In this document: positions 35,980 to 45,838 of the stretch, one piece after another
Numbering within the stretch: position 1 is the first letter of the stretch
Layout of the letters: each line of letters begins with the position of its first letter
Assembly (NCBI GenBank): GCA_014143165.1
Contig: GCA_014143165.1_4843.1
DNA from: a phage
DNA length: 45,838 nucleotides
Strand: one strand, 5' to 3'
Position numbers and translations under genes: made by a program
Notes under the pieces: generated by a model
Database searches by the model: none
Seen by the model: the letters and a program-made list of their open reading frames with translations, nothing else
Told to the model about the DNA's origin: nothing

Positions 35980-36009
35980 CTCTTCAACCTCACTTGTTTC
36001 GATGAGTTC

Positions 36010-36038
36010 AATCTACATCAGATGTGATTCTACGTCAA
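36010..36038 (-). promoter_or_regulatory. Leftward early promoter TTGACG-17-TAGATT
   Basis: Minus strand: TTGACG (36033-36038), 17 nt, TAGATT (36010-36015). It contains two motif copies, GATGTAGATT (36010-36019) and GACGTAGAAT (36027-36036). Confidence 0.65.
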
Positions 36039-36204
36039 CACACAGAGAAAGAAAAAGAACGACTAAATGTTAGTGAACGTTAGCTTACATGCATAGTTAC
36101 ATGTATCACTAATAGTAACCTTTGTTTATTACCTCTATAAAGTATATTAAGATCTTCTTTATATTTATTATAGATATTAATACCTTACGCTACAGAAAAA
36201 CGAA

Positions 36205-36230
36205 AACCAGCAATTAAGCTGGTTATTTTT
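36205..36230. terminator. Bidirectional hairpin between the early promoter and the iteron region
   Basis: AACCAGC-AATTAA-GCTGGTT (36205-36224) has T-runs on both strands (ATTTTTTAG on plus, TTCGTTTTTC on minus). Confidence 0.5.
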
Positions 36231-36252
36231 TAGTGGTTTTTAGTATTTTTTT

Positions 36253-36480
36253 GCTTCCCGGGCTTCCCGTGATTTCTGGTAAGCGTTTTTTTCTTTGTTT
36301 TCAGTAGCTTCGTAGTGTTTTTTGTATCGCTTCCCGCTTCCAAGAAAAATAATTTTTGAATTTTAAAACTCTCAATTTTTTCGAAAATCTTCTCGGGAAG
36401 CGGGAAGTTGGGAAGCGACCACTTAAACCATTGATTTTTCTGTATTTCCGCTTCCCGGGTTAAAATAAACATTGGGAAGC
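36253..36480. repeat. Iteron array GGGAAGC / GCTTCCC around an AT-rich core (putative replication origin)
   Basis: GCTTCCC at 36253, 36262, 36329 and 36450, plus a degenerate GCTTCCA at 36336. GGGAAGC at 36395, 36410 and 36474, plus GGGAAGT at 36402. The AT-rich spacer at 36343-36390 separates oppositely oriented copies. The array lies immediately upstream of the primase/helicase operon. Confidence 0.6.
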
Positions 36481-36647
36481 CAAATTATTGAAAAATAAAG
36501 AAAAGTTGCCACTCTGGAAGCTGTTATACACCTGTTGGAAATTGTTGTCAACAACCCGGAGCCTGGATCAGCTGCGTGGAATATGCTTGCTGATGTGTCT
36601 TTTTTCCTTTATTCTTTTTTTTGCCAAAAACCAAGCGGAGGTGAGTG

Positions 36648-36878
36648 ATGAGCAACGTGAAGAACGACTACAGATTTGGCAGTGCGATTGGCGAGGTCTG
36701 GGATTTTGTGCGTGATATGTTGGTTGGTGAGTGTAAGGAGTTTAACTTTGATGAGTTAACCGCTAATGAAGGATTAAGGGGATTCAGAGTTAACCTTCAT
36801 AAGGTTGCAGTGCGGAACGGATGGATGTTTAAAACACGAGCTAAGGCTGGTGGTTTGTGGGTTAAGCGGATTAAGTGA
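36648..36878 (+). CDS. Hypothetical protein
   Basis: The ATG at 36648 has GGAGG 6 nt upstream. 76 aa. First gene of the rightward replication operon. Confidence 0.55.
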   Translation: MSNVKNDYRFGSAIGEVWDFVRDMLVGECKEFNFDELTANEGLRGFRVNLHKVAVRNGWMFKTRAKAGGLWVKRIK

Positions 36879-37312
36879 GGTGTTGGGATATGAAAAGGTA
36901 CTACATTGAGGCAGTTGGGCCTGATGGTAAAAAGGTGTATGCCAGCGGTAGATGTGGTTTTCTGCATGATTTTACCTATGCCAAGTTTTTCAAAACAATA
37001 GAGGAGGCTGAGAGGTATATGGCGTTGCGGAAGCCGCATCTCCCATGTGAAATAAAATGCAAGGAGCAAAGGGTAAAAAAACGGGCCGCGTCTGTGCGGG
37101 AGCAAAAACCGACAATGGAGGGAGAGGCTCGAAGCTTCGTCTACCGACTTGGTTTGGGTAAGGGAAAGCATTTTGTGTTTGATGATTTTGCGTTGATAAG
37201 GAGTATTGAGCAGTTGAGAATTGCGCTTTCCGTAGTTGGTAAGAAGCTGCAAAAAAAATTCAGTGTCAAGATGGTTGCACGTAATACCGCTTATGTGGTG
37301 AGGGTTAAATGA
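36875..37312 (+). CDS. Hypothetical basic protein
   Basis: 145-aa ORF, coupled to its neighbours by overlapping start/stop codons. Confidence 0.55.
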   Translation: MRCWDMKRYYIEAVGPDGKKVYASGRCGFLHDFTYAKFFKTIEEAERYMALRKPHLPCEIKCKEQRVKKRAASVREQKPTMEGEARSFVYRLGLGKGKHFVFDDFALIRSIEQLRIALSVVGKKLQKKFSVKMVARNTAYVVRVK

Positions 37313-39642
37313 TGATTGGTTATGAAGATTACCGCAAATGTGGCTTCCCTATTATTGGAATCCATGCAATGGATATCGACCGCAATTGCACATGCGGTGA
37401 TCCAGAGTGCAATGCTGCTGGTAAGCATCCGGTTATGAGTAACTGGCAGCTTGGAGTTATATGGGCTGATGACCAGATTGAAAATATGGCTGAATATGGT
37501 CAACTGCAGTCATTCGGTGTCCTTGTGAATGGTTATCTGGTCGTTGATATTGATCCACGCAACGGAGGTAATGATGGATATGAATCTCTTTGTGATGCCT
37601 TAGACGTAGAGCTTGCTGACGAAGCTGGTTTTACGGTTAAGACTGGCGGTGGTGGTCGGCACATCTATTACAAACTTCCTGAAGGAATAAAGCTGCGCTC
37701 TCATGACAGAAGGTTTAAGGGTATTGACTTTAAATCATCTGGTTTTGTTGTTGGCTGTGGTTCTTTTCATAAAACCGGAAACTTTTATGAGGCCGAGCAT
37801 GGATCCCCTTCAGAGATAACTGAATGTCCATCTGAACTTATTGAGCTTTTGTTGCGCCCTGAGAGAACAGAAGACGAGGTTTTCACGCTTGATAGTAAAA
37901 ATTACAGCATTGCCGAAATGGAGGATATGCTCAAATACATCAAAGATGGTGATGAGTATGACCCATGGCTTCATGTAGGTATGGCTATCCACGAAGCTAC
38001 AGAAGGCAATGGTTTTGAGCTTTGGGATAGATGGTCATCGCAGTTCAGCAAATACAGAGCTGAAGAGATGGACGCAAAATGGCACTCCTTTGGAAAGGAC
38101 GGCGTTAGCGAAAAGATAACCGAAGCAACGCTGGTTTATCTCGCGCAAGAGGGAGGGTGGGTAAGGCAAGTAACTTTTGAGGCTACTCCAGAGGAAATTG
38201 AGAAACTTGAGTCTTTCGAGCGAGAGATGGCAATGGGTGTTGGGGAATGCCCTGTAGAGTACAAAAGTGTTGATGTCCGTTATCCCCCTGGATTTGTTGG
38301 TCGCCTTACGGCGTGGATTAATAAGAACTGTGCAGAGAAGCGAGAGAATATTGCAGCACTTGCTGCATTGCACGCTGCATCCATGATTTGCGGTGCGTCA
38401 TCTGATATTTACCTTACAAACAGGAAGGCTTTGCCAAACCTGTTTGCTGTTGGTATAGCTGGTTCAGGTTCTGGTAAGGGTGATGTTCTTGCTGCGCTAC
38501 AAAAGATAATTGATTGCTCAGGATTGAGCAAGACTGTCGCCGGTAAGATACGTTCAGAGCGTGCGATATATGAAGGTCTTTGCGCTAACCAGATGTTTAA
38601 TATCATCATGGATGAGATTGGGATAAAACTTGGGAGTGTTGTTGGTCAGAAAGTAAGCGAGTACAACATGGCAACCGCTGGTGCGATCATGGAGGCTTAC
38701 ACGTCAGAAGTTCTTTATTGTGACCAGCGGGTTACTGAGGATTTCATTAAGTCTTTCGAAAAAAGAAAGGCTATGCTGTTAATGGCTATTGAGGAAAATG
38801 AGATACAGGCAGACCCCGTAGACATTAAGTGTCAGTTTGATGATGTGATAAACAGAATTGACGGAGCTATAAGGAATCCATTTTTTTCAATCTTTGGTGT
38901 GTCTACTGATGATCAGTTTAAGCGACTTATCACTGAAGAAAACATTAAGTCAGGTCTTATGGGTCGCGCAATGATTATGCAGGAGTTACAGGAGATTGCT
39001 GACGAAAACGAAAACGTAAACTACTGTGATCTACCTATGGATATGCAACTGACCATAAAAACAATAATAAATGGCGGAACGGCTGGGCACAAAAACTGGA
39101 CAGACTCAATAATCAGTCAAAAAGAAAGACGGATTATAAAAGCTACGCCTGAAGTTTCTCAGCTCGCTAAAGAGTTCTTCTCATGGATTAAAACCGTTGC
39201 AAGAAAGCATGTAGAAAATGGTACTGGTTATCACCCATTGATAAACAGATGCGCCGTGAAGGTGGCAAAGATTGCTGGCATTCTCGCGTGCGATACTGGC
39301 GTCATAACCATGGAGCACTTGAGATATGCGGTAGCATTAACAATTAAATCAACAAGCGATCTGATGATGCGTGCTGACAGTATCGCCGGAGCGAAGTCTA
39401 AAGCTATGGAAGAAAGAATTGAAGGTATTTTCTCCATGGTTAAAGAATATGTTAAGCGTGGAATGACCAAAACAGCAATGGTTAGAGGGGTAGCAAAAGA
39501 AGGTGGGTATAAACGTGCTGATGTCGAGAGGTGCGTAGAGAAGTTGTTATCAGATGGTATTATTTGCATTGATGAAAATGCAAAAAGAACATCTCACAAC
39601 GTAATAATTTACAAATTAACAAATGATGAGGTTGAGATATGA
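37309..39642 (+). CDS. Bifunctional primase-polymerase / SF3 (D5-like) helicase
   Basis: 777 aa. The N-terminal prim-pol-like region (GYLVVDIDPRNGG ... GGGGRHIYY) is followed by a PriCT-like middle region (YDPWLHVGMAIH ... WDRWS) and a C-terminal P-loop (GIAGSGSGKGDV) with Walker B IIMDEIG. Confidence 0.8.
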   Translation: MMIGYEDYRKCGFPIIGIHAMDIDRNCTCGDPECNAAGKHPVMSNWQLGVIWADDQIENMAEYGQLQSFGVLVNGYLVVDIDPRNGGNDGYESLCDALDVELADEAGFTVKTGGGGRHIYYKLPEGIKLRSHDRRFKGIDFKSSGFVVGCGSFHKTGNFYEAEHGSPSEITECPSELIELLLRPERTEDEVFTLDSKNYSIAEMEDMLKYIKDGDEYDPWLHVGMAIHEATEGNGFELWDRWSSQFSKYRAEEMDAKWHSFGKDGVSEKITEATLVYLAQEGGWVRQVTFEATPEEIEKLESFEREMAMGVGECPVEYKSVDVRYPPGFVGRLTAWINKNCAEKRENIAALAALHAASMICGASSDIYLTNRKALPNLFAVGIAGSGSGKGDVLAALQKIIDCSGLSKTVAGKIRSERAIYEGLCANQMFNIIMDEIGIKLGSVVGQKVSEYNMATAGAIMEAYTSEVLYCDQRVTEDFIKSFEKRKAMLLMAIEENEIQADPVDIKCQFDDVINRIDGAIRNPFFSIFGVSTDDQFKRLITEENIKSGLMGRAMIMQELQEIADENENVNYCDLPMDMQLTIKTIINGGTAGHKNWTDSIISQKERRIIKATPEVSQLAKEFFSWIKTVARKHVENGTGYHPLINRCAVKVAKIAGILACDTGVITMEHLRYAVALTIKSTSDLMMRADSIAGAKSKAMEERIEGIFSMVKEYVKRGMTKTAMVRGVAKEGGYKRADVERCVEKLLSDGIICIDENAKRTSHNVIIYKLTNDEVEI

Positions 39643-40034
39643 TTAATTACAAGTATCTGGTGATGAGAGGTTTGTATGACTATTTTGAGTCAGAAAATCC
39701 TGAGCGCGCACATGATAACGCAATATCCATGATGACAGGAAAGCACCTGATGGAAGTTTACTACTGGAAAATGCCTGTATTCCGCTGCAATATGGGTATC
39801 TGCATTGATGATGACGTACTGTTTTGTCGAATACAATATGAAAACAATGTTGGCATAGTGACAGCATCGTACAGGGATGTTGCAAGAAAATCCGGGAACT
39901 GGCATCCAAGCGAAGTATTTGCTGGTGACGCACTATTTAATTTCTGTAAGGCGTTTGGTGTTTTGTATGAGGATGTAAGCAAAGAGTATAGCGGAAGGCG
40001 TGAGAAAGATAGCTTAAGCTCAAAAGGAGCATAA
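39639..40034 (+). CDS. Hypothetical protein
   Basis: 131-aa ORF, ATGA-coupled to the primase gene. Confidence 0.55.
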   Translation: MINYKYLVMRGLYDYFESENPERAHDNAISMMTGKHLMEVYYWKMPVFRCNMGICIDDDVLFCRIQYENNVGIVTASYRDVARKSGNWHPSEVFAGDALFNFCKAFGVLYEDVSKEYSGRREKDSLSSKGA

Positions 40035-40035
40035 C

Positions 40036-40062
40036 AAAAAGCCCGCAAACGCGGGCTTTATT
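40036..40062. terminator. Bidirectional intrinsic terminator
   Basis: AAAGCCCGC-AAAC-GCGGGCTTT is flanked by A-runs and T-runs. It lies between convergent genes. Confidence 0.8.
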
Positions 40063-40303
40063 ATTTAACAATCCATTTTGTAACAGCTGGCCTTAAATCT
40101 TCCTTTCTGAAAAATCCACCAGTAAGTTTCTCGGCATCAATTGCTGCTGTAGCGCTAATTCTTCCTCTTGACACCCACTGATTGACAGCCTGTTTTGACA
40201 CACCAAGAAACCTTGCCAGTTGTGATTGCCCTCCAACATAATCAATCAGCTCTGACAGCTTCGTCTGTTCCATTTCTCTTATCTGTTCTGCGATGCTTTT
40301 CAT
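40061..40303 (-). CDS. Cro / YdaS-like HTH transcriptional regulator
   Basis: The ATG at 40303 (MKSIAEQIREMEQTKLSELIDYVGGQSQLARFLGVSKQAVNQWVSRGRIS...) has GAGGT upstream. It carries a classical HTH with the QAV.QW signature of the Cro/YdaS family. Confidence 0.7.
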   Translation of the reverse strand: MKSIAEQIREMEQTKLSELIDYVGGQSQLARFLGVSKQAVNQWVSRGRISATAAIDAEKLTGGFFRKEDLRPAVTKWIVK

Positions 40304-40332
40304 GTGTTTACCTCTGCTATCTGTATGCAGCA

Positions 40333-40394
40333 ATAATGAACTCAAAAAAAATTTTCGTCAAGGTATTGCGTTTACCATCACGTTGACGTATCTT
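40333..40394. promoter_or_regulatory. Divergent promoters (leftward TTGACG-17-CATTAT; rightward TTGCGT-17-TATCTT)
   Basis: Minus strand: TTGACG (40356-40361) and CATTAT (40333-40338). Plus strand: TTGCGT (40366-40371) and TATCTT (40389-40394). Confidence 0.45.
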
Positions 40395-40437
40395 TAAGTC
40401 ACACCAGCGATATGCTGAGTTAAATCGAGAGGACACT

Positions 40438-41280
40438 ATGAGCTTATCAATGATTCAAAAACCAAAACCAGCAGCGCCAATCATAACATTGGTTGGTACT
40501 CCAGGTGTAGGCAAGACAACTCTTGCGGCGCTATTCCCAAACCCAGTGTTTATTCAGGCTGAAGAGATCACTGGTGTTTTTGATGACTGGGATGATGAAA
40601 AGAAACCTGATTCATTTCCTGTTCTGAAGCGCGCTGACGCTAAACGCAAAACAAGCACAAAGGATGATTTGCTGTCACAGCTACGCGCATTAATTACTGA
40701 GGAACATAATTACAAAACGCTTGTAATTGACTCAATCACAAGCCTGCATTCAATGTTTGAGCATGAGGTTTGTGAAAATTACGGTGTTGACAACGTTGGT
40801 TCTGCGGCTGGTGGTTACAACAAAGGATATATTGTTGTTTCTGAAATGCACGCTGAAATAATAAATGCATGTAAGTATCTTCGCAAAGAAAAAGGGATGA
40901 GCATTATTTATCTTGCGCACGCAGGTGTTAAAAAGATGAAGAATCGCCCTGATGCTGATGAATACACTGTTTACACACTTGACATGCATGATGCTTCTGT
41001 TTCTGGTTATGTGAATCTTAGTGATGCTGTTATTTACATCAGGAATGAGGAGTTTGTGAAAGGTACTGAAACTGATAAAAAAGGTCAGGTAACTAAGTTT
41101 GGTAAAGTTGTTCAGACTGGTCAGCGAGTTCTTATTACCTCTGGTGATGGTCGCATTGGGTATGTTAATGCTAAAAACAGATACAACCTTGAGCCTGAAA
41201 TTCCTTTTGAAAAAGGTGAGAACCCGCTTTTGAGTGAGATTAAATATTATGCATCTCTACGAGATAACCAAACAGCTTAA
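40438..41280 (+). CDS. Sak4-like RecA-fold ATPase (AAA_24 family)
   Basis: 280 aa. Walker A LVGTPGVGKTTLA is present. Gene context (Gp157 and a DUF669-type SSB downstream) is the typical Sak4 recombination module. Confidence 0.7.
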   Translation: MSLSMIQKPKPAAPIITLVGTPGVGKTTLAALFPNPVFIQAEEITGVFDDWDDEKKPDSFPVLKRADAKRKTSTKDDLLSQLRALITEEHNYKTLVIDSITSLHSMFEHEVCENYGVDNVGSAAGGYNKGYIVVSEMHAEIINACKYLRKEKGMSIIYLAHAGVKKMKNRPDADEYTVYTLDMHDASVSGYVNLSDAVIYIRNEEFVKGTETDKKGQVTKFGKVVQTGQRVLITSGDGRIGYVNAKNRYNLEPEIPFEKGENPLLSEIKYYASLRDNQTA

Positions 41281-41728
41281 TGAACTGCTGGCGATGGAGG
41301 ATATTCCACGAGAGCAGATTGAAGATACTATAAACCTTATTGAAGAGGAGTTTGAAGGAAAGGCTGAAATGGTTGCTGCTTACATTCGTGAGCTTGAAGC
41401 TGATGAGGCCGGACTGAATTCTGAGATTGACCGACTTTCTGAGCGTAAGCGTGTTTTAGTTTCGAAGATTGATAATCTTAAGGATTATCTTCGTCAGAAC
41501 ATGATGGCTTCAGGAAAGACGAACATCAAAGGTAAGTTGTTCAGTATCACGCTTGGCAAACCATCACCAGTTCTTGATGTGTTTGTTCCTGTTGAGCAGC
41601 TTCCTGAGCAGTACCGTGTTGTGAAAGTGTCGGCAGATAACGCAGCGATTAAAAATGCGATTAAAGCCGGGATTGAAATTAATGGTTGTGCCATCACCGA
41701 CGGCAAACCGAAACTGATCATCAAATAA
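41249..41728 (+). CDS. Siphovirus Gp157-family protein
   Basis: ATG at 41249 (MHLYEITKQLNELLAMED...); the coiled-coil N-terminal half is typical of Gp157. The track ORF starts at a GTG at 41234. Confidence 0.65.
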   Translation: MHLYEITKQLNELLAMEDIPREQIEDTINLIEEEFEGKAEMVAAYIRELEADEAGLNSEIDRLSERKRVLVSKIDNLKDYLRQNMMASGKTNIKGKLFSITLGKPSPVLDVFVPVEQLPEQYRVVKVSADNAAIKNAIKAGIEINGCAITDGKPKLIIK

Positions 41729-41744
41729 TCGAGAGGACACAAAA

Positions 41745-42266
41745 ATGGGTTTCTGGAATCTTTCTGACGGTAAAGCTGTTGAATCTAAATCTGAATTTGA
41801 GCTGGGTGGTGGTTTCGAAGTAATTCCTGATGGTAGCCGTGTTCTTGCTGCCGTTGAAGAATGTAAAGACGACCAGTGGGAAGGTGAGCGATTCTTCAAT
41901 CTTAAGTGGAGAATCCTTGAGGGTGAATATAAAAATCGCATCATCTTCCAGAAGCTGAAAGTATTTAGCTCTAAAGAAAAGCAGCGAGACAATGCTATCA
42001 CTATGCTTGCAGCAATTGACGCAAACGCTGGTGGAAAGCTGATGGCATCAGGAAAAGAGCCGACTGATTTTGCTATTGCCAGTGCGCTTGCGAATCGCCC
42101 GATGATTCTTCTTCTGCGCGTTTGGGAATCTGAGGATAAGCAAAAAACTGGTAACTATGTGGCTGGTGTATTTGGTCGTCAACAGACAAAAGCAGCACCT
42201 GCTACTAAGCAGTCAGCGCCGTCTAACGAGCCGCCGATGGACTTTGATGATGACATTCCGTTCTGA
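41745..42266 (+). CDS. DUF669-type single-strand-binding-like protein carrying a bacterial SSB C-terminal tip
   Basis: 173 aa. The C-terminus, APSNEPPMDFDDDIPF, reproduces the E. coli SSB acidic tip. The body does not look like a canonical OB-fold SSB, but its position after Sak4/Gp157 fits the cognate DUF669 partner. Confidence 0.65.
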   Translation: MGFWNLSDGKAVESKSEFELGGGFEVIPDGSRVLAAVEECKDDQWEGERFFNLKWRILEGEYKNRIIFQKLKVFSSKEKQRDNAITMLAAIDANAGGKLMASGKEPTDFAIASALANRPMILLLRVWESEDKQKTGNYVAGVFGRQQTKAAPATKQSAPSNEPPMDFDDDIPF

Positions 42267-42288
42267 TGATTTGATGTTTGTTTAAATG

Positions 42289-42313
42289 AAGCCCCGTTAA
42301 GGGGCTTTTAATT
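42289..42313 (+). terminator. Hairpin / partial terminator
   Basis: AAGCCCC-GTTAA-GGGGCTT followed by TTAATT. It lies immediately before the next SD, so it is probably an attenuating or stabilising hairpin. Confidence 0.5.
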
Positions 42314-42323
42314 GGAGTTTTAT

Positions 42324-42701
42324 ATGTACGAAGTTATCTGTGATTACTGCAATATTGCAACAAGACTAGCTAAAGGGAGTGAAATTTACCCGCACAGACA
42401 AGATCTTTATGCGCTTAATTTCTATCTGTGCGATTCCTGTGGTGCTTATGTTGGTTGCCATAAAAATGGTGATGGAAAAAGGCCTCTTGGAAGGGTAGCA
42501 AATGAAGAATTAAGGAAGGCAAAAAGCAAAGCACATGCTGCATTTGATCCTCTATGGAAATCAGGAAAAATGTCGCGAGGTGCTGCTTACTCTGCATTAG
42601 CTAGTTCGATGGCAATAAAAAAAGATAAATGCCACATAGGAATGTTTGATGTTAAACAATGCGAGTATGTTGTCGAGTGGTGCAAGGAGTTTTGTTTATG
42701 A
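42324..42701 (+). CDS. DUF3268-like zinc-finger protein
   Basis: The ATG at 42324 has GGAG 6 nt upstream. CDYC...IYPHR.DL....FY.CD.CGAYVGCH......PLGRVAN.ELR.AK..AH..FD.LW matches the DUF3268 pattern. Confidence 0.6.
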   Translation: MYEVICDYCNIATRLAKGSEIYPHRQDLYALNFYLCDSCGAYVGCHKNGDGKRPLGRVANEELRKAKSKAHAAFDPLWKSGKMSRGAAYSALASSMAIKKDKCHIGMFDVKQCEYVVEWCKEFCL

Positions 42702-44563
42702 AATATACGCTAAGGCCATACCAACAAGAAGCTGTGGATTCAGCTATGGCACACATTCGCAGCACCATCTCCTCATGCGTTATCATCCTCCCGACAGGTG
42801 CAGGAAAATCTATGGTTGTGGCAGAACTTGCATCTCGTATTTATGGTATGAGCAAAAAGCGAGTTTTGTGTATTGCTCCCACAGCGGAACTCGTCACACA
42901 AAATCGCGCTAAATATCTTCTTACTGGAGAGCCAGCCAGCATGTTCAGTGCGAAGGCCGGACCAAAGAACCTGCGCCATCCGGTTGTTTTTGGCTCACCA
43001 GTTACAATCAAGAACTCAATAGAGATGTTTGGTGATAAGTATGGTGCTGTCATTATTGATGAGTGTGATGGAATAACACCAACCATTAAATTTATTATTA
43101 ATGAGATGAAGCGCCGAAATCCAAAGCTGCGTGTTATTGGGATGACCGCTACGCCTTATCGCCTTGGAACTGGATACATCTACAAAGAGCACTACCTAGA
43201 CGGTCCTACAGATGAAGAAACAGCCATAGACCCATATTACGACAAAGTCGTTTATGAGCTTGAAGCTAAATTTCTCATCGAAAATGGATATCTTACGCCA
43301 CCAGTTACAGATCCTGTTTTTGACGAGTATGATACGTCTTGTCTTGAAAAGGATAAGTTAGGTCGGTACACAACAGCTTCAGTTGAAAAGGCGATGGTTG
43401 GCAAGGGGAGGAAAACATCACGCATTGTTGAAGATATTATCCGTCGCTCTGTTAATCGGCGCGGAACGATGATTTTTGCCAGCACCAAGAAGCACGCTAT
43501 GGAGATAATGGAGTCGCTTCCTCCAGGTTCTTATAGCTATGTTTTTGGTGATATGCCAACATCAGATCGCAACAAGGCAATATCAGACTTCAAGTCGCAA
43601 AAAGTTAAATACATCGTCAACCAGAATATCCTTACTGTAGGGGTGGATGTTCCTCATTGTGATCACATAGCAGTAATGAGAGCCACAGAATCACCAAGAC
43701 TGTACCAGCAAATAATTGGCAGGGGGACGCGTCTTTATGAAGGTAAGCAAGACTTTCTTGTCAGCGATTACGCAGGCAATATTCAGCGACACTTTTCTGA
43801 GACCGGGGACTTGTTCACTCCAGAAATAAAAGCAACAAGGAAAAAACCATCAGTCCCAATGGATGTTAAATGCCCGTTATGTGGATTTATCAATGAATTT
43901 GGTGTGCGTCCTAATCCTGAAAATCTTGAAGTTGACAAGGAAGGTTACTGGCTTGATTTGGCTGGTGACAGAGTGATGATTGATATTTTTGATAAGTCAG
44001 GTGAAAAAATTGGAAGCAAACCTATGCCTGCTCATTTTGGCAGAAGATGTAAAAACTACGTTATGCAAGGTCCACTAAGAGAAATGCACAGATGTACTTA
44101 TAAATGGTCGGTAAAAGAGTGTCCTGATTGCGGGTTTGAAAATGATATAGCGGCAAGAAACTGCACATCATGCGGCGCTGAAATCATTGACCCAAACCAA
44201 AAGCTAAAGGAAGAAGCTGACAGGCTTGATTCTTCTCCTTATGCAACCAAGCAATCAAGCGTAACCATGATGAACATCATGAAGCATTACGTTTCAAGCG
44301 GTGAAGATTTGGTGCACGTAAAATTTGCTATTGAACAGAAACCATTTTTTGTTAGCAAGTTCTACAATCCAAACTCTGAGAAGGAATGGATGAAGAAGGA
44401 GTGGGAAGAGTTTTGTGAGAAGTGCTTTGGTGAATCCGACATGTCAATTGATGACGCAATAGCAAAAAGAGATGAGGCTGTCGCGCCATCAGTGATTATG
44501 TTCAGAAGAGATAAGGGTAGTAAATATTTCAACGTTAAAGGCATGTATTGGGGGGTATTATGA
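42698..44563 (+). CDS. SF2 DEAD/DEAH-box helicase with C-terminal zinc ribbons
   Basis: ATG at 42698 (AAGGAG upstream). Motif I LPTGAGKS, motif II IIDECD, motif III MTATP, motif VI QQIIGRGTR. The C-terminal part carries CPLCG, CPDCG and CTSCG ribbons. Confidence 0.85.
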   Translation: MKYTLRPYQQEAVDSAMAHIRSTISSCVIILPTGAGKSMVVAELASRIYGMSKKRVLCIAPTAELVTQNRAKYLLTGEPASMFSAKAGPKNLRHPVVFGSPVTIKNSIEMFGDKYGAVIIDECDGITPTIKFIINEMKRRNPKLRVIGMTATPYRLGTGYIYKEHYLDGPTDEETAIDPYYDKVVYELEAKFLIENGYLTPPVTDPVFDEYDTSCLEKDKLGRYTTASVEKAMVGKGRKTSRIVEDIIRRSVNRRGTMIFASTKKHAMEIMESLPPGSYSYVFGDMPTSDRNKAISDFKSQKVKYIVNQNILTVGVDVPHCDHIAVMRATESPRLYQQIIGRGTRLYEGKQDFLVSDYAGNIQRHFSETGDLFTPEIKATRKKPSVPMDVKCPLCGFINEFGVRPNPENLEVDKEGYWLDLAGDRVMIDIFDKSGEKIGSKPMPAHFGRRCKNYVMQGPLREMHRCTYKWSVKECPDCGFENDIAARNCTSCGAEIIDPNQKLKEEADRLDSSPYATKQSSVTMMNIMKHYVSSGEDLVHVKFAIEQKPFFVSKFYNPNSEKEWMKKEWEEFCEKCFGESDMSIDDAIAKRDEAVAPSVIMFRRDKGSKYFNVKGMYWGVL

Positions 44564-45015
44564 TTTTTCCAGAAGGCGTTAAGGTATATGGCGATTTAGA
44601 TTACAGAAACAAAAAGTGCCCGTCAGAAGATGCTGAGCTGGAGACTTTTGTTAATCAGATAAGGAAGCTATATCCTGACTTTGCAAGAGTTATGATTCAT
44701 GTGCCAAATGAAGGAAAGCGTAAAGGGTATGAAGTTGAAAACCTGAAGAAAAAGGGCGCGTTAAACTTCGGCGCCTCGGACATCATTATCGTCGGAAAGC
44801 AATCATTTGTTATGGAGATGAAAAGAATGGATCATACTTTATCAAAATGGCAGCCAGGTCAAATGGCATACCTCAAGGCTGCAAAAGAATTAGACTCCTT
44901 CGCGTGTGTATGCCTCGGTTGGGAAGCGGCGATGATGGCATTTAACGACTGGAGAGCAATAAATTACCCAAACTATAAAAAACCATCAGAGCCATTGATA
45001 TTTGATGGTTTTTAG
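44560..45015 (+). CDS. VRR-NUC domain nuclease
   Basis: The ATG at 44560 overlaps the helicase stop (ATGA). GASDIIIVG...FVMEMKR......Q..Y matches the D..(E/Q)xK VRR-NUC core. It ends at TAG 45013-45015. Confidence 0.8.
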   Translation: MIFPEGVKVYGDLDYRNKKCPSEDAELETFVNQIRKLYPDFARVMIHVPNEGKRKGYEVENLKKKGALNFGASDIIIVGKQSFVMEMKRMDHTLSKWQPGQMAYLKAAKELDSFACVCLGWEAAMMAFNDWRAINYPNYKKPSEPLIFDGF

Positions 45016-45132
45016 CAACCACGCCAGCAATCAGGCCAACAACCGCAACGACAACAACAGCCACCAAAACAACAAAGCCCACAAGGAGGGAATGAGCCTC
45101 CTATGGACTTCGATGATTCAATACCCTTCTGA
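45016..45132 (+). other. In-frame post-stop extension encoding an SSB-type disordered linker plus acidic tip
   Basis: The 38 codons directly after the VRR-NUC TAG, in the same frame, read QPRQQSGQQPQRQQQPPKQQSPQGGNEPPMDFDDSIPF followed by TGA (45130-45132). There is no usable internal start and no SD. Confidence 0.6.
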
Positions 45133-45142
45133 TGATAAAACT

Positions 45143-45168
45143 AACCCCGCCGAAGCGGGGTTTTGTTT
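45143..45168. terminator. Bidirectional intrinsic terminator
   Basis: AACCCCGC-CGAA-GCGGGGTT followed by TTGTTTATT. It lies between convergent genes. Confidence 0.8.
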
Positions 45169-45169
45169 A

Positions 45170-45838
45170 TTACTTCTGTTCAAGAGCAGAAAGTCTGGCT
45201 TCGATTCTTTCCAGTTTTCTTCGCTGATAAGCAGCTTCAGCAAAGAAAATTCCGTCAGGCCGAACACCCCATTCCTCACCCTCTTCGTGAATAACCACCT
45301 CGGTGTATACAGGTTCTTCCGTGGTAGTGACATTACCCTCATCGTCAGTGTGTTCAACGATTTCATTGTGCGAAAATACCATATCGGTAAACCGTGGATA
45401 CTTGTCATAGCACAGAACGGCATAACGACAATCCGTACTGTTTTCGTCCATCAGACCATGTGCAATGAATACATCACGAATTTGCTGAGCAATAACCCCG
45501 AAGTGAATACGAGCATCATTGCCTTTCAGTTGAACAGCATCTAACCACTGGTACATGATGTAGTGAACGTCACCCCAGGCATCCAGGAAAGCATCATCAA
45601 AAACTACCGGCTCTGTCTTTAATGTTCCGTCACTGGTAACCACAGGATTGGAGCCAAGATAAACTGTCGAGAACCTGTTTCTCGGACCACCAAGAGCATT
45701 TACATTATCACGATAAGGTTTAACATCTCCGTTCTCAAAAAGATGTTCGAGTGCGTTATATACCGCGCGACGTGGAGTACTGCTTCCGGAACCATGCAAC
45801 GTTATCATTGCACCATCTGCTGAAGACGTTGTTTCACC
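45170..45838 (-). CDS. Tail fibre / tailspike C-terminal end with intramolecular chaperone (peptidase S74-like) domain (partial)
   Basis: The reading frame is open to the window end, so the first Met of the track ORF is not the true start. RFSTVYLGS.PVVTSDG..K ... ARIHFGVIAQQIRDVF..HGL.......YAVLCYDKY ... a terminal coiled coil ending ..RLSALEQK is the pattern of endosialidase / L-shaped-fibre auto-cleaving chaperone domains. Confidence 0.75.
   Translation of the reverse strand, partial: GETTSSADGAMITLHGSGSSTPRRAVYNALEHLFENGDVKPYRDNVNALGGPRNRFSTVYLGSNPVVTSDGTLKTEPVVFDDAFLDAWGDVHYIMYQWLDAVQLKGNDARIHFGVIAQQIRDVFIAHGLMDENSTDCRYAVLCYDKYPRFTDMVFSHNEIVEHTDDEGNVTTTEEPVYTEVVIHEEGEEWGVRPDGIFFAEAAYQRRKLERIEARLSALEQK

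Follow-up and report, generated by a model that had tools for sequence, protein, structure and literature searches.

Introduction

Akira-, Jersey- and IME207-like siphophages carry a bacterial-type ssb gene (e.g. Akira QBZ71415.1, 161 aa, PF00436). The gene order in this sister group (Akira, ASO78B, IME207 and Klebsiella VLCpiS13e) is helicase, nuclease, exonuclease, recombinase, ssb, terminator and tail fibre. In the phage DNA analyzed here (45,838 nt of contig GCA_014143165.1_4843.1, in its whole length referred to as the window), the last 38 codons of such a gene, its triple stop, the terminator and the adjacency to the tail-fibre gene are the same, whereas the start, the ribosome-binding site and the OB-fold are missing, and ~370 nt of ssb are gone together with the exonuclease and recombinase genes. 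These 38 codons directly follow, in the same frame, the amber stop of a nuclease gene.

Three other described systems invite comparison. The tail of the E. coli SSB has the same linker and tip architecture (DFDDDIPF, within the full tip MDFDDDIPF, as compared to DFDDSIPF in the window), but the window peptide has no DNA-binding core and is most probably untranslated; the truly host-like tip in the window belongs to a different (DUF669) protein. In programmed read-through, as in the Qbeta A1 protein, which is a read-through extension via UGA, an open reading frame likewise continues directly after the stop; among relatives of the window, however, neither the stop nor its context is conserved, and some of these phages have an interrupted or frame-shifted extension or none. 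Finally, gene remnants and conserved boundary sequences occur at the mosaic junctions of phage genomes, among them, in lambdoid and T-even phages, flanks through which tail-fibre cassettes are exchanged. The fragment in the window is a truncated module-boundary piece of the same kind, common to diverged genomes and with breakpoints inside it, albeit differing from the usual mosaic remnants in that it encodes a protein-interaction motif and is by chance in frame with the upstream gene.

No description of the remnant was found in the literature on Sf11, on Sa179lw, on VRR-NUC together with tailspike, or on phage mimicry of the SSB C-terminal tip. The paper on the K1 phage JSSK01 reports a genome that is organized differently.

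Results

Genome context

The features of the region are collected in Table 1. The helicase (27% identical to the Akira helicase, E 7e-43) provides a syntenic anchor with the ssb-carrying phages, and the two architectures have homologous helicases and nucleases. Gene maps place the recombination/SSB module upstream of the helicase in the window lineage. The Sak4-like, Gam-like and DUF669 genes constitute an alternative recombination module in place of the exonuclease, recombinase and ssb of the sister phages, and the DUF669 candidate SSB would make a canonical ssb dispensable. This protein carries an E. coli-like acidic tip at 42225-42263 (the range 42228-42266 given for it in an earlier note on this DNA includes the stop codon), and in 3173 records the 3' end of the chromosomal E. 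coli ssb matches the segment 42214-42272 with an identity of at least 99%.

Table 1. Features of the window discussed in the text
Feature	Coordinates	Strand	Details
Sak4-like annealase and Mu Gam-like genes	40438..41728	+	phrog_124, phrog_253
DUF669-type SSB (PF05037), candidate working SSB	41745..42266	+	phrog_9002 'single strand DNA binding protein', E 2e-69
DEAD/ResIII helicase gene	42659..44563	+	PF04851, PF00271, PF00270
VRR-NUC-like (PD-(D/E)xK) nuclease gene	44560..45015	+	151 aa; own native stop TAG 45013-45015
Vestigial ssb 3' end	45016..45129	+	38 codons, 114 nt, QPRQQSGQQPQRQQQPPKQQSPQGGNEPPMDFDDSIPF; without OB fold, without 5' start
SSB-Ct nonapeptide MDFDDSIPF	45103..45129	+	in-frame ATG 45103, 13 nt past AGGAGG 45084-45089
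Triple stop of the ssb gene itself, TGA TGA TAA	45130..45138	+	identical in intact ssb loci
Bidirectional intrinsic terminator	45143..45162	.	8-bp stem, 6 G-C pairs, T-runs on both strands
Tail-spike gene 3' end	45170..45838	-	endosialidase catalytic C-terminal part (PF12219) and Peptidase_S74 chaperone (PF13884)

The strong terminator that the earlier note had seen after the TGA of the tail is a G+C-rich hairpin scoring on both strands, common to the ssb-carrying phages; the ASO78B annotation likewise has a terminator on each strand. The early/replication operon terminates here on the plus strand and the tail-spike gene on the minus strand. The 3' end of the latter matches K1F and IME207. The gene runs past the end of the window into its start; in relatives, the tail-spike N-terminus and the tail gene are collinear with these two ends joined.

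The nuclease ends at its own stop codon

The start codon of the nuclease gene overlaps the helicase stop as ATGA, and the gene is predicted to be translationally coupled to that of the helicase through this overlap. The VRR-NUC label given to the product in the earlier note holds at the level of fold but fails at the Pfam threshold. A Pfam search with the window protein returned no match; the VRR_NUC profile (PF08774) matched 2 of 17 homologues, with a best E of 0.12 that is below threshold; a sequence search against the PDB was likewise empty, and PHROG 824, into which the protein falls, is annotated as being of unknown function. By contrast, a Foldseek comparison of the AlphaFold model (mean pLDDT 65, pTM 0.66) with the PDB gave VRR_NUC structures for all of the top 7 fold matches (TM 0.53-0.68), the best one being 4qbl (prob 1.0, E 6e-3). 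Owing to the moderate model quality, this is supportive rather than conclusive of a VRR-NUC / PD-(D/E)xK fold. D74, E86 and K88 (SD...EMK), by analogy the candidate catalytic residues, are invariant in an alignment of 17 sequences, as is the C-terminal phenylalanine. The protein is 35% identical to the product of the syntenic Akira gene.

The reading frame ends with ...PLIFDGF-TAG at 45013-45015, as originally described. One of the possibilities raised at that time was an ancestral fusion of the nuclease with an SSB tail, broken by a nonsense mutation in this isolate, and a search of orthologues for a sense codon at 45013 had been proposed. The only features in its favor are the in-frame arrangement itself and the alignment of TAG to CAG when compared to ssb alleles with one CAA fewer. 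The codon is a stop (TAG, TAA or TGA) in every one of the ~34 related loci. It follows the invariant terminal Phe, which is also the C-terminus in tail-less relatives. No fused homologue was found among 57 homologue clusters (drawn from 5.8 billion proteins), none of them exceeding 152 aa or covering the tail. The ancestral fusion is effectively refuted, and we regard it as extremely improbable.

A separate proposal, in which an SSB tail captured earlier would account for the hypervariable C-terminal extension of the nuclease (...KQNEPSPPITINHF, ...PVIIDNF, ...PLIFDGF), was unsupported. When the 3' ends of 14 nuclease genes were aligned locally, as DNA, with 32 ssb tails, against a null of 1500 random window segments, P values were mostly 0.1-0.4; two ends reached ~0.005, which is attributed to CAA-rich low-complexity matches.

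The tail is the 3' end of a phage ssb gene

As the earlier note had stated, 38 codons continue the nuclease frame after the TAG and end in TGA. They comprise 25 codons of a Q/P-rich disordered linker followed by the tip NEPPMDFDDSIPF, and their reading as an SSB linker and acidic tip is upheld by a DNA identity of 93-97% to annotated phage ssb 3' ends (for Akira, 96.6% with E 3e-63). Across its first 69 nt the stretch does not differ from Akira ssb (69/69). Its remaining 45 nt, taken together with the stop and the next 80 nt (128 nt in total), are closest to the IME207 ssb locus. Tails equal or almost equal to the translation occur in 63 full-length SSBs, as well as in Akira and ASO78B. Judged from this agreement, the likeness to ssb is not a chance resemblance.

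The homology begins at 45014-45016. Upstream of this junction no significant DNA similarity to ssb was detected, the score being no different from that of shuffles (P 0.32). A tblastn search of the whole window with Akira SSB matched only residues 148-161, at 45088-45129, and no homologue of the OB-fold, the exonuclease or the recombinase was present anywhere in the window. Of the features of a bacterial-type SSB gene (PF00436), the locus possesses the tail (linker and ...DFDD[DS]IPF-COOH) and lacks the OB fold and a start and RBS of its own. Of the sister ssb gene the window thus keeps the tail only, and, as in a gene remnant, the homology is confined to a single end of a gene that relatives carry intact at the syntenic position. 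Microhomology was considered for the junction; it amounts at most to the 'AG' of TAG, common to ssb alleles with one CAA fewer.

The earlier claim that the stretch has neither a Shine-Dalgarno sequence nor a start is correct for its beginning, where CAA directly follows the TAG, but not for its interior, where a perfect AGGAGG precedes the only in-frame start, an ATG inside the tip (Table 1). Expression of the tail alone, as a small SSB-Ct peptide competing with the host SSB for its partners, could take the form of a 9-aa product from this signal in the window or of a 22-24-aa MKPSNTQKPPANEPPMD(FD)DDIPF in the Klebsiella-phage clade, made by termination-reinitiation at TGAATG. The signals do exist, and an ATG stands directly after the stop in 9 of the 10 clade-2 remnants. 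Taken together, both forms are nevertheless highly improbable. The 13-nt spacing between AGGAGG and ATG is poor, and both elements also occur within full-length ssb genes, being part of the internal ssb sequence. Clade-2 remnants lack this sequence and the SD-like motif; in one of them (L021) ATT replaces ATG. No translation signal is common to both clades, and the remnant is dispensable, as types D and E illustrate. The AGGAGG-ATG pair was inherited from intact ssb genes, and this putative start probably goes unused.

An open reading frame of 180 aa in an alternative frame (45002-45544, TTG start), the counterpart of the annotated Sf11 gp12, was rejected as spurious, since it crosses the terminator, is antisense to the tail-spike gene and has a downstream part that is unconserved among relatives, which have different spikes.

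The remnant is polymorphic and often disabled among relatives

Five junction states were observed, with 38-40 codons, 21-23 codons, 15 codons, ~18 nt or nothing retained. Two of the 13 close relatives have nonsense codons inside the tail, one of them an internal TAG (L013), the other a CGA to TGA change accompanied by a 1-nt frameshift (L203). In one further lineage (L112 and L116) the 15-codon tip lies in frame +1. Nine relatives have no tip: two (L110 and L118) keep ~18 nt, and seven (L113, L114, L117, L119, L120, ECO95 and gmqsjt-1) have no tail, the stop leading straight to the terminator. Up to 44678 ECO95 and the window share 94.5% identity, and yet ECO95 is without the remnant. Such presence/absence polymorphism and disabling mutations are characteristic of a gene remnant. 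All 25 remnants seen have an intact tip, which 21 of them carry in the nuclease frame. Of the three junction classes, two are in frame. Each class lies within 0-4 nt of the nuclease stop, an abutment more orderly than expected of a random scar unless the origin was single. They may go back to one event followed by internal deletions in the linker.

These data bear directly on the suggestion that programmed or tolerated read-through, or amber suppression, yields a minor form of the nuclease carrying an SSB linker and tip that docks into host SSB-tip pockets. In its favor, clades 1 and 2 have the tail in frame, and most remnants preserve an intact tip. A UAG with C as its next base terminates relatively weakly in E. 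coli, and for this reason a small amount of the extended protein is likely to be made in some hosts, and far more in supE strains. However, the stop with its next base is TAG-C or TAA-C in clade 1, TGA-A or TAA-A in clade 2 and TGA-A or TGA-C in type C, so that no leaky context is conserved. The nonsense codons, the frameshift, the +1 tips and the nine tip-less relatives, among them ECO95 with its near-identical replication module, also speak against a tagged nuclease of this kind. Stops, frame changes and loss of the tail in relatives are just what the earlier note had named as grounds for refutation. In addition, a tRNA search of the phage found none, and thus no phage-encoded suppressor tRNA; the local RNA fold (z -1.88) is not significant and is driven by the terminator; and Rfam returned no family, with only sub-threshold terminator-like matches. 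Given also the substitution pattern described below, which equals that of functional ssb alleles, we consider this suggestion very unlikely.

Substitution pattern and recombination

Comparison of the two tips in the window had originally been taken to indicate a peptide under selection and not a decaying scar. The count behind this argument (synonymous differences at 6 codons and a non-synonymous one, D to S over 3 nt, at 1) is correct, but the argument is misleading, for the remnants resemble functional alleles in this respect: the ratio of synonymous to non-synonymous differences is 66:37 when remnants are set against the closest functional allele, and 101:60 when functional ssb alleles are compared with one another. 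The synonymous bias is no sign of selection on the remnant, since selection acted in functional ssb genes and in the host ssb, from which the two tips derive. Functional alleles are the nearest neighbours of the remnants, and nearly every amino-acid variant of the latter, including MDDDIPF, occurs in full-length SSBs too. Nonsense codons are confined to remnants, with none in functional alleles.

Recombination in the tail is apparent in several comparisons. In two phages (L020 and L022) the tip and downstream sequence are identical to functional ssb loci at 128/128 and 127/128 positions. YX3973 and L017 share 71.5% identity across helicase and nuclease and have unmatched linkers; starting at the tip, they agree at 92.3% over 2470 nt. 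Between Sa179lw and ssb-carrying phages only two homologous DNA blocks were found in ~9 kb, one consisting of the ssb tail and terminator (150-158 nt, 89-90%), the other of the tail-spike N-terminus and tail gene (~1.85 kb, 86-87%), and the two bracket the variable spike. Recombination breakpoints fall inside the tail, and every member of clade 1 has a different spike downstream of the same remnant. The argument that recombination refreshes the remnant depends on co-circulating ssb-carrying donors, and such donors are present in the same metagenome (IMG/VR 3300045988).

Could the remnant itself be selected as a cis-acting DNA linker for tail-spike exchange with ssb carriers, rather than hitch-hike? 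The breakpoints inside the tail, the small number of homology blocks around the variable spike (two, of which tail and terminator are one), and the diversity of spikes behind one remnant in clade 1 are all in line with this idea. On the other hand, the terminator alone is shared and spikes are diverse in the tail-less types D and E as well, it is difficult to demonstrate second-order selection for recombinability, and passive co-transfer explains the data equally well. We regard such selection as possible but rather unlikely.

Discussion

Overall, the tail is very probably a non-functional remnant of a bacterial-type phage ssb, kept 'fresh' by recombination with ssb carriers and not by selected translation. 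Among the three readings offered in the earlier note, this corresponds to a displaced ssb gene whose remnant is in frame by chance, and the comparative data (ssb homology, synteny, the missing OB fold and polymorphism) bear it out; the tagged nuclease and the fusion broken in this isolate did not withstand the comparison with relatives.

We envision the following history. The window lineage would have lost, or never received, the exonuclease-recombinase-ssb block, save for the last 38 ssb codons, with the junction placed at the nuclease stop codon; the order of events may have involved a deletion or, alternatively, illegitimate acquisition together with the tail-spike cassette. The remnant would then sit in the 3' untranslated region of the nuclease gene, just upstream of the terminator that originally ended ssb. 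It is presumably untranslated; its in-frame position would be a coincidence, and the peptide would be made in no selected amount. In this scenario, the ssb tail and terminator may serve as the left homology arm of an exchangeable tail-spike cassette, a role that would matter here; recombination at this arm would renew the alleles and make the remnant look 'fresh'. Exchange with ssb-carrying phages would repeatedly overwrite it with alleles shaped by selection on functional genes, while a remnant not overwritten would decay or be deleted. The recognizable interaction motif and the chance frame with the nuclease gene are what made it look functional.

Retention of the tip in most lineages might still be aided by SSB-Ct products (a tagged nuclease or a peptide of 9-24 residues) that vie with host SSB for partner proteins in infected cells and arise from low-level UAG-C read-through, AGGAGG-ATG initiation or, in Klebsiella-phage relatives, TGAATG reinitiation, although we attach little credence to such a contribution.

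The remnant of the window is an ordinary pseudogene fragment at a module boundary, of a kind that is routine in phage mosaicism, and it carries little mechanistic weight. It does advise caution, as an in-frame, motif-bearing stretch with a high ratio of synonymous to non-synonymous differences may be a scar whose conservation is imported from functional paralogues or alleles. The region is also an annotation trap, as illustrated by Sf11 gp12, which was called across it in another frame. At the same time, the comparison locates to the nucleotide one of the two homology arms for spike exchange between ssb-carrying and ssb-less enterobacterial siphophages, a map that is useful for engineering the host range of these phages.

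Identity of the stretch behind the nuclease stop

The nuclease ORF does end in ...PLIFDGF-TAG (45013-45015) followed by 38 in-frame codons, as the earlier note described. In a megablast search of 50,697 phage records, 45014-45170 matched the 3' ends of annotated single-stranded DNA-binding protein genes with 91-97% identity (Akira, ASO78B, Segz_1, KFS-SE2, HC6 and others). These phages encode an SSB of about 161 aa (PF00436) in the gene order helicase, small nuclease-like protein, exonuclease, recombinase, ssb, terminator and converging tail-fibre gene. The 38 codons correspond exactly to the last 38 of Akira ssb (C-terminus ...GKRDDSGQQQPRQQSGQQPQRQQQPPKQQSPQGGNEPPMDFDDSIPF), the initial 69 nt being identical (69/69), with the triple stop and the terminator shared as well. 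Homology to ssb begins at the nuclease stop codon; the sequence 5' of the junction has no similarity to ssb beyond chance, and no OB fold, Akira-type exonuclease or recombinase was found anywhere in the window. Akira carries homologues of both the helicase (27% identity, E 7e-43) and the nuclease (35%, E 3e-20) in syntenic positions, while in the window the module upstream of the helicase (a Sak4-like annealase, a Mu Gam-like protein and a DUF669-type SSB with its own tip) replaces exonuclease, recombinase and ssb. Taken together, the 3'-end match, the synteny, the missing OB fold and the different module show, by sequence comparison, that the stretch, located at a module boundary, is what remains of a canonical ssb gene, namely its 3' stump, in agreement with the suggestion of a displaced ssb that is in frame by chance. 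An ssb gene as such was rejected, since OB fold and start are both absent.

Features at the junction and of the second SSB gene
Feature	Position	Strand	Remark
DUF669-type SSB gene	41745-42266		own acidic tip at 42225-42263
Nuclease ORF	44560-45015	+	ATG at 44560; ATGA overlap with helicase stop
Remnant, 38 codons, QPRQQSGQQPQRQQQPPKQQSPQGGNEPPMDFDDSIPF	45016-45129	+	same frame as nuclease
TGA TGA TAA	directly 3' of remnant	+	triple stop
G+C-rich hairpin	45143-45162	both	scored as intrinsic terminator on each strand; folded
Tail-spike gene (endosialidase C-terminal part and S74 chaperone)	from 45170	-	converges on remnant

Some details of the original description required adjustment. The VRR-NUC label falls short of the Pfam VRR_NUC threshold and finds its support at the fold level, the top matches of the AlphaFold model (pLDDT 65) in a PDB fold search all being VRR_NUC structures. 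The count of six synonymous and one non-synonymous codon differences from the second tip stands, with the position of that tip corrected to 42225-42263. The stretch had been said to have no Shine-Dalgarno sequence and no start; it contains a perfect AGGAGG (45084-45089) and, 13 nt past it, an in-frame ATG (45103) from which translation would give precisely the SSB-Ct nonapeptide MDFDDSIPF (ending at 45129). This arrangement is an inheritance from intact ssb genes. GenBank annotates a 60-aa hypothetical protein, Sf11 gp12 (locus L005, 3606-3788), over the remnant in another frame; it and its window counterpart, ORF 45002-45544, which crosses the terminator and runs antisense to the spike gene, are probably annotation artefacts.

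Comparison with related phages

About 34 loci carrying this nuclease of 151-152 aa were compared (GenBank phages, IMG/VR, Logan, ENA and JGI), and they show five states 3' of its stop.

States of the sequence 3' of the nuclease stop
Type	Sequence after stop	Representation	Nuclease identity
A (clade 1)	38-40-codon tail, in frame	13 distinct sequences	94-99%
B (Klebsiella-phage clade)	21-23-codon tail, in frame, M/I-KPSNTQKPPANEPPMD(FD)DDIPF	10 sequences	about 65%
C	15-codon tail QQ[TP]PNS[PQ]PMEDDIPF, one-nt offset (frame +1)	L112, L116	
D	tip absent, about 18 nt	L110/L111, L118	
E	terminator immediately after stop	L113, L114/L115, L117, L119, L120, ECO95 1-6-1, gmqsjt-1	

In type B the tail corresponds to the C-terminal end of full-length SSBs in Klebsiella phages (e.g. 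VLCpiS13e and KP591P3), the junction lying at a different place within ssb than in type A. ECO95 1-6-1 is 94.5% identical to the window across 36000-44678 and yet has no remnant, so the remnant is dispensable.

These relatives bear directly on the proposal that read-through or suppression of the stop yields a tip-tagged nuclease. The tail is missing from some of them; a TAG interrupts the linker of one type A locus (L013), and another (L203, a 46-kb contig) has CGA changed to TGA plus a 1-nt frameshift; findings of this sort had been listed in the earlier note as refuting read-through. The stop itself varies between TAG, TAA and TGA (in type A, TAG in 11 of 13, TAA in Sa179lw and Sf11; in type B, TGA or TAA). 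When the hypothetical product of read-through was used to search 5.8 billion proteins, 57 nuclease homologue clusters were retrieved, none with a member longer than 152 aa or spanning the tail, and the tail part of the query matched full-length SSBs only. No tRNA genes are encoded by the phage, and no RNA family or convincing structure was found at the junction. The in-frame state of two of the three junction classes is unremarkable, as at least two of three would be in frame by chance with a probability of 7/27. A read-through extension was thus rejected, as three of its defining features were tested and not found, and we consider it most improbable that even low levels of tip-tagged nuclease or free SSB-Ct peptide are made from the remnant. 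The alternative of an ancestral fusion broken by a nonsense mutation is contradicted by the stop and the terminal Phe, which are native to the nuclease and present in tail-less relatives.

Several related loci deserve separate mention. In type B loci L016-L023, L025 (RSU-F4K5) and L029 (VLCpiS13c) an ATG (ATT in L021) abuts the nuclease stop (TGAATG or TAAATG), opening a mini-ORF of 22-24 codons, MKPSNTQKPPANEPPMD(FD)DDIPF; termination-reinitiation could, with low probability, yield a free SSB-tip peptide in this clade. In two IMG/VR ssb loci (L160 and L168) the tip ...PPMDF[SD]DDIPF is internal, with about 15 more residues (…IPFAPFGLQYGKSRIYAL and …IPFAPVTLPFPRHAIHAI); stop-codon loss or fusion may have buried it. 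The 151-152-aa nucleases have a C-terminal extension missing from shorter homologues (119-148 aa). This extension (window 44968-45012, the last 15 codons; alignment columns 138-152) varies more than any other part of the protein, with an invariant terminal Phe mostly after I-[DNE]-x, and could be a partner-docking motif; an origin from an ssb tail was tested with a negative result. In ECO95 1-6-1 (L007) a TAG (…KQN*PSSPITISHF*) stands about 36 nt before the usual stop, where gmqsjt-1 has GAG (…KQNEPSPPTTINNF*), so its nuclease ends 12 residues early, without the otherwise invariant terminal Phe.

Substitution pattern and recombination

The earlier note had read the excess of synonymous differences as an indication that the peptide is under selection. 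This is not borne out when the remnants are set against functional ssb tails from IMG/VR (23 distinct sequences). Most remnant amino-acid variants (QQQLP, KQQGP, SQQGG, QQRQQSG, QQSQR, NEPT), as well as the MDDDIPF deletion form, also occur in full-length SSBs; the nearest neighbour of a remnant is usually a functional allele, not another remnant; and synonymous to non-synonymous counts are alike (66:37 for remnants versus nearest functional alleles, 101:60 among functional alleles), with nonsense codons in remnants only. These observations argue that the pattern arose in functional genes and was then imported.

Several comparisons provide direct evidence of recombination inside the tail. The type A phage YX3973 and the type B locus L017 share 71.5% identity over helicase and nuclease, have unalignable linkers, and reach 92.3% identity over the 2470 nt that begin at the tip. 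L020 and L022 match functional ssb loci at 128/128 and 127/128 positions, respectively, through tip, terminator and downstream DNA, and IME207, an ssb carrier, is 96.5% identical to the window over tail, terminator and 3' end of the spike. Within about 9 kb, Sa179lw shares only two blocks of homologous DNA with ssb-carrying phages: 150-158 nt (89-90%) covering the ssb tail and the terminator, and about 1.85 kb (86-87%) covering the tail-spike N-terminus and the tail gene next to it. The two blocks flank the variable receptor-binding part of the spike.

The endosialidase gene of podovirus K1F and its relatives and the large myophages YX22, PBM-2 and PBM-3 match the spike C-terminal region (45159-45749) with 90-98% identity, indicating that a K1-capsule depolymerase module has probably moved across morphotypes. 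Sa179lw, Akira, ASO78B and IME207 have a tail-spike N-terminus and tail gene collinear with 45170-45838 joined to 1-2734, so the window looks like a complete circularly permuted genome of ~45.8 kb, its tail-spike gene split over the ends.

Origin and persistence of the remnant

Overall, the stretch is a piece of the 3' end of ssb that lies where replication module and tail-spike cassette meet; it is polymorphic, decaying and a recombination breakpoint. It could have arisen when the Sak4/Gam/DUF669 lineage lost an exonuclease-recombinase-ssb block, or when two crossovers, one homologous and one illegitimate, brought in the tail-spike cassette of an ssb-carrying phage. All three tail-bearing junctions lie within 0-4 nt of the nuclease stop, and the type C tail begins CAACAACCAC, resembling ssb as it reads at the junction of type A; a putative single ancestral junction with later deletions in the repetitive CAA/CAG linker would account for this clustering. 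The remnant would be untranslated except for unavoidable background read-through, and its 114 nt would persist at little cost, a fresh copy being re-importable at each spike exchange. Its role as a homology arm might be under selection in its own right. Gene remnants at mosaic junctions are a well-known kind, to which this one conforms by its sequence features; a search of the literature found no earlier account of this one, which is apparently undescribed.

The DUF669-type SSB gene, over its final ~50 nt and a few bases past its stop (42214-42272), matches the 3' end of chromosomal E. coli ssb, with at least 99% identity in 3173 of 5113 matching records. In relatives the tips of this SSB have diverged (DVPF, DFSDDIPF and, in a Klebsiella phage, EEPPVDYDDDIPF). 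The non-canonical phage SSB thus appears to have captured, or been homogenised with, the host SSB tip, which, if true, would be the productive counterpart of the dead remnant.
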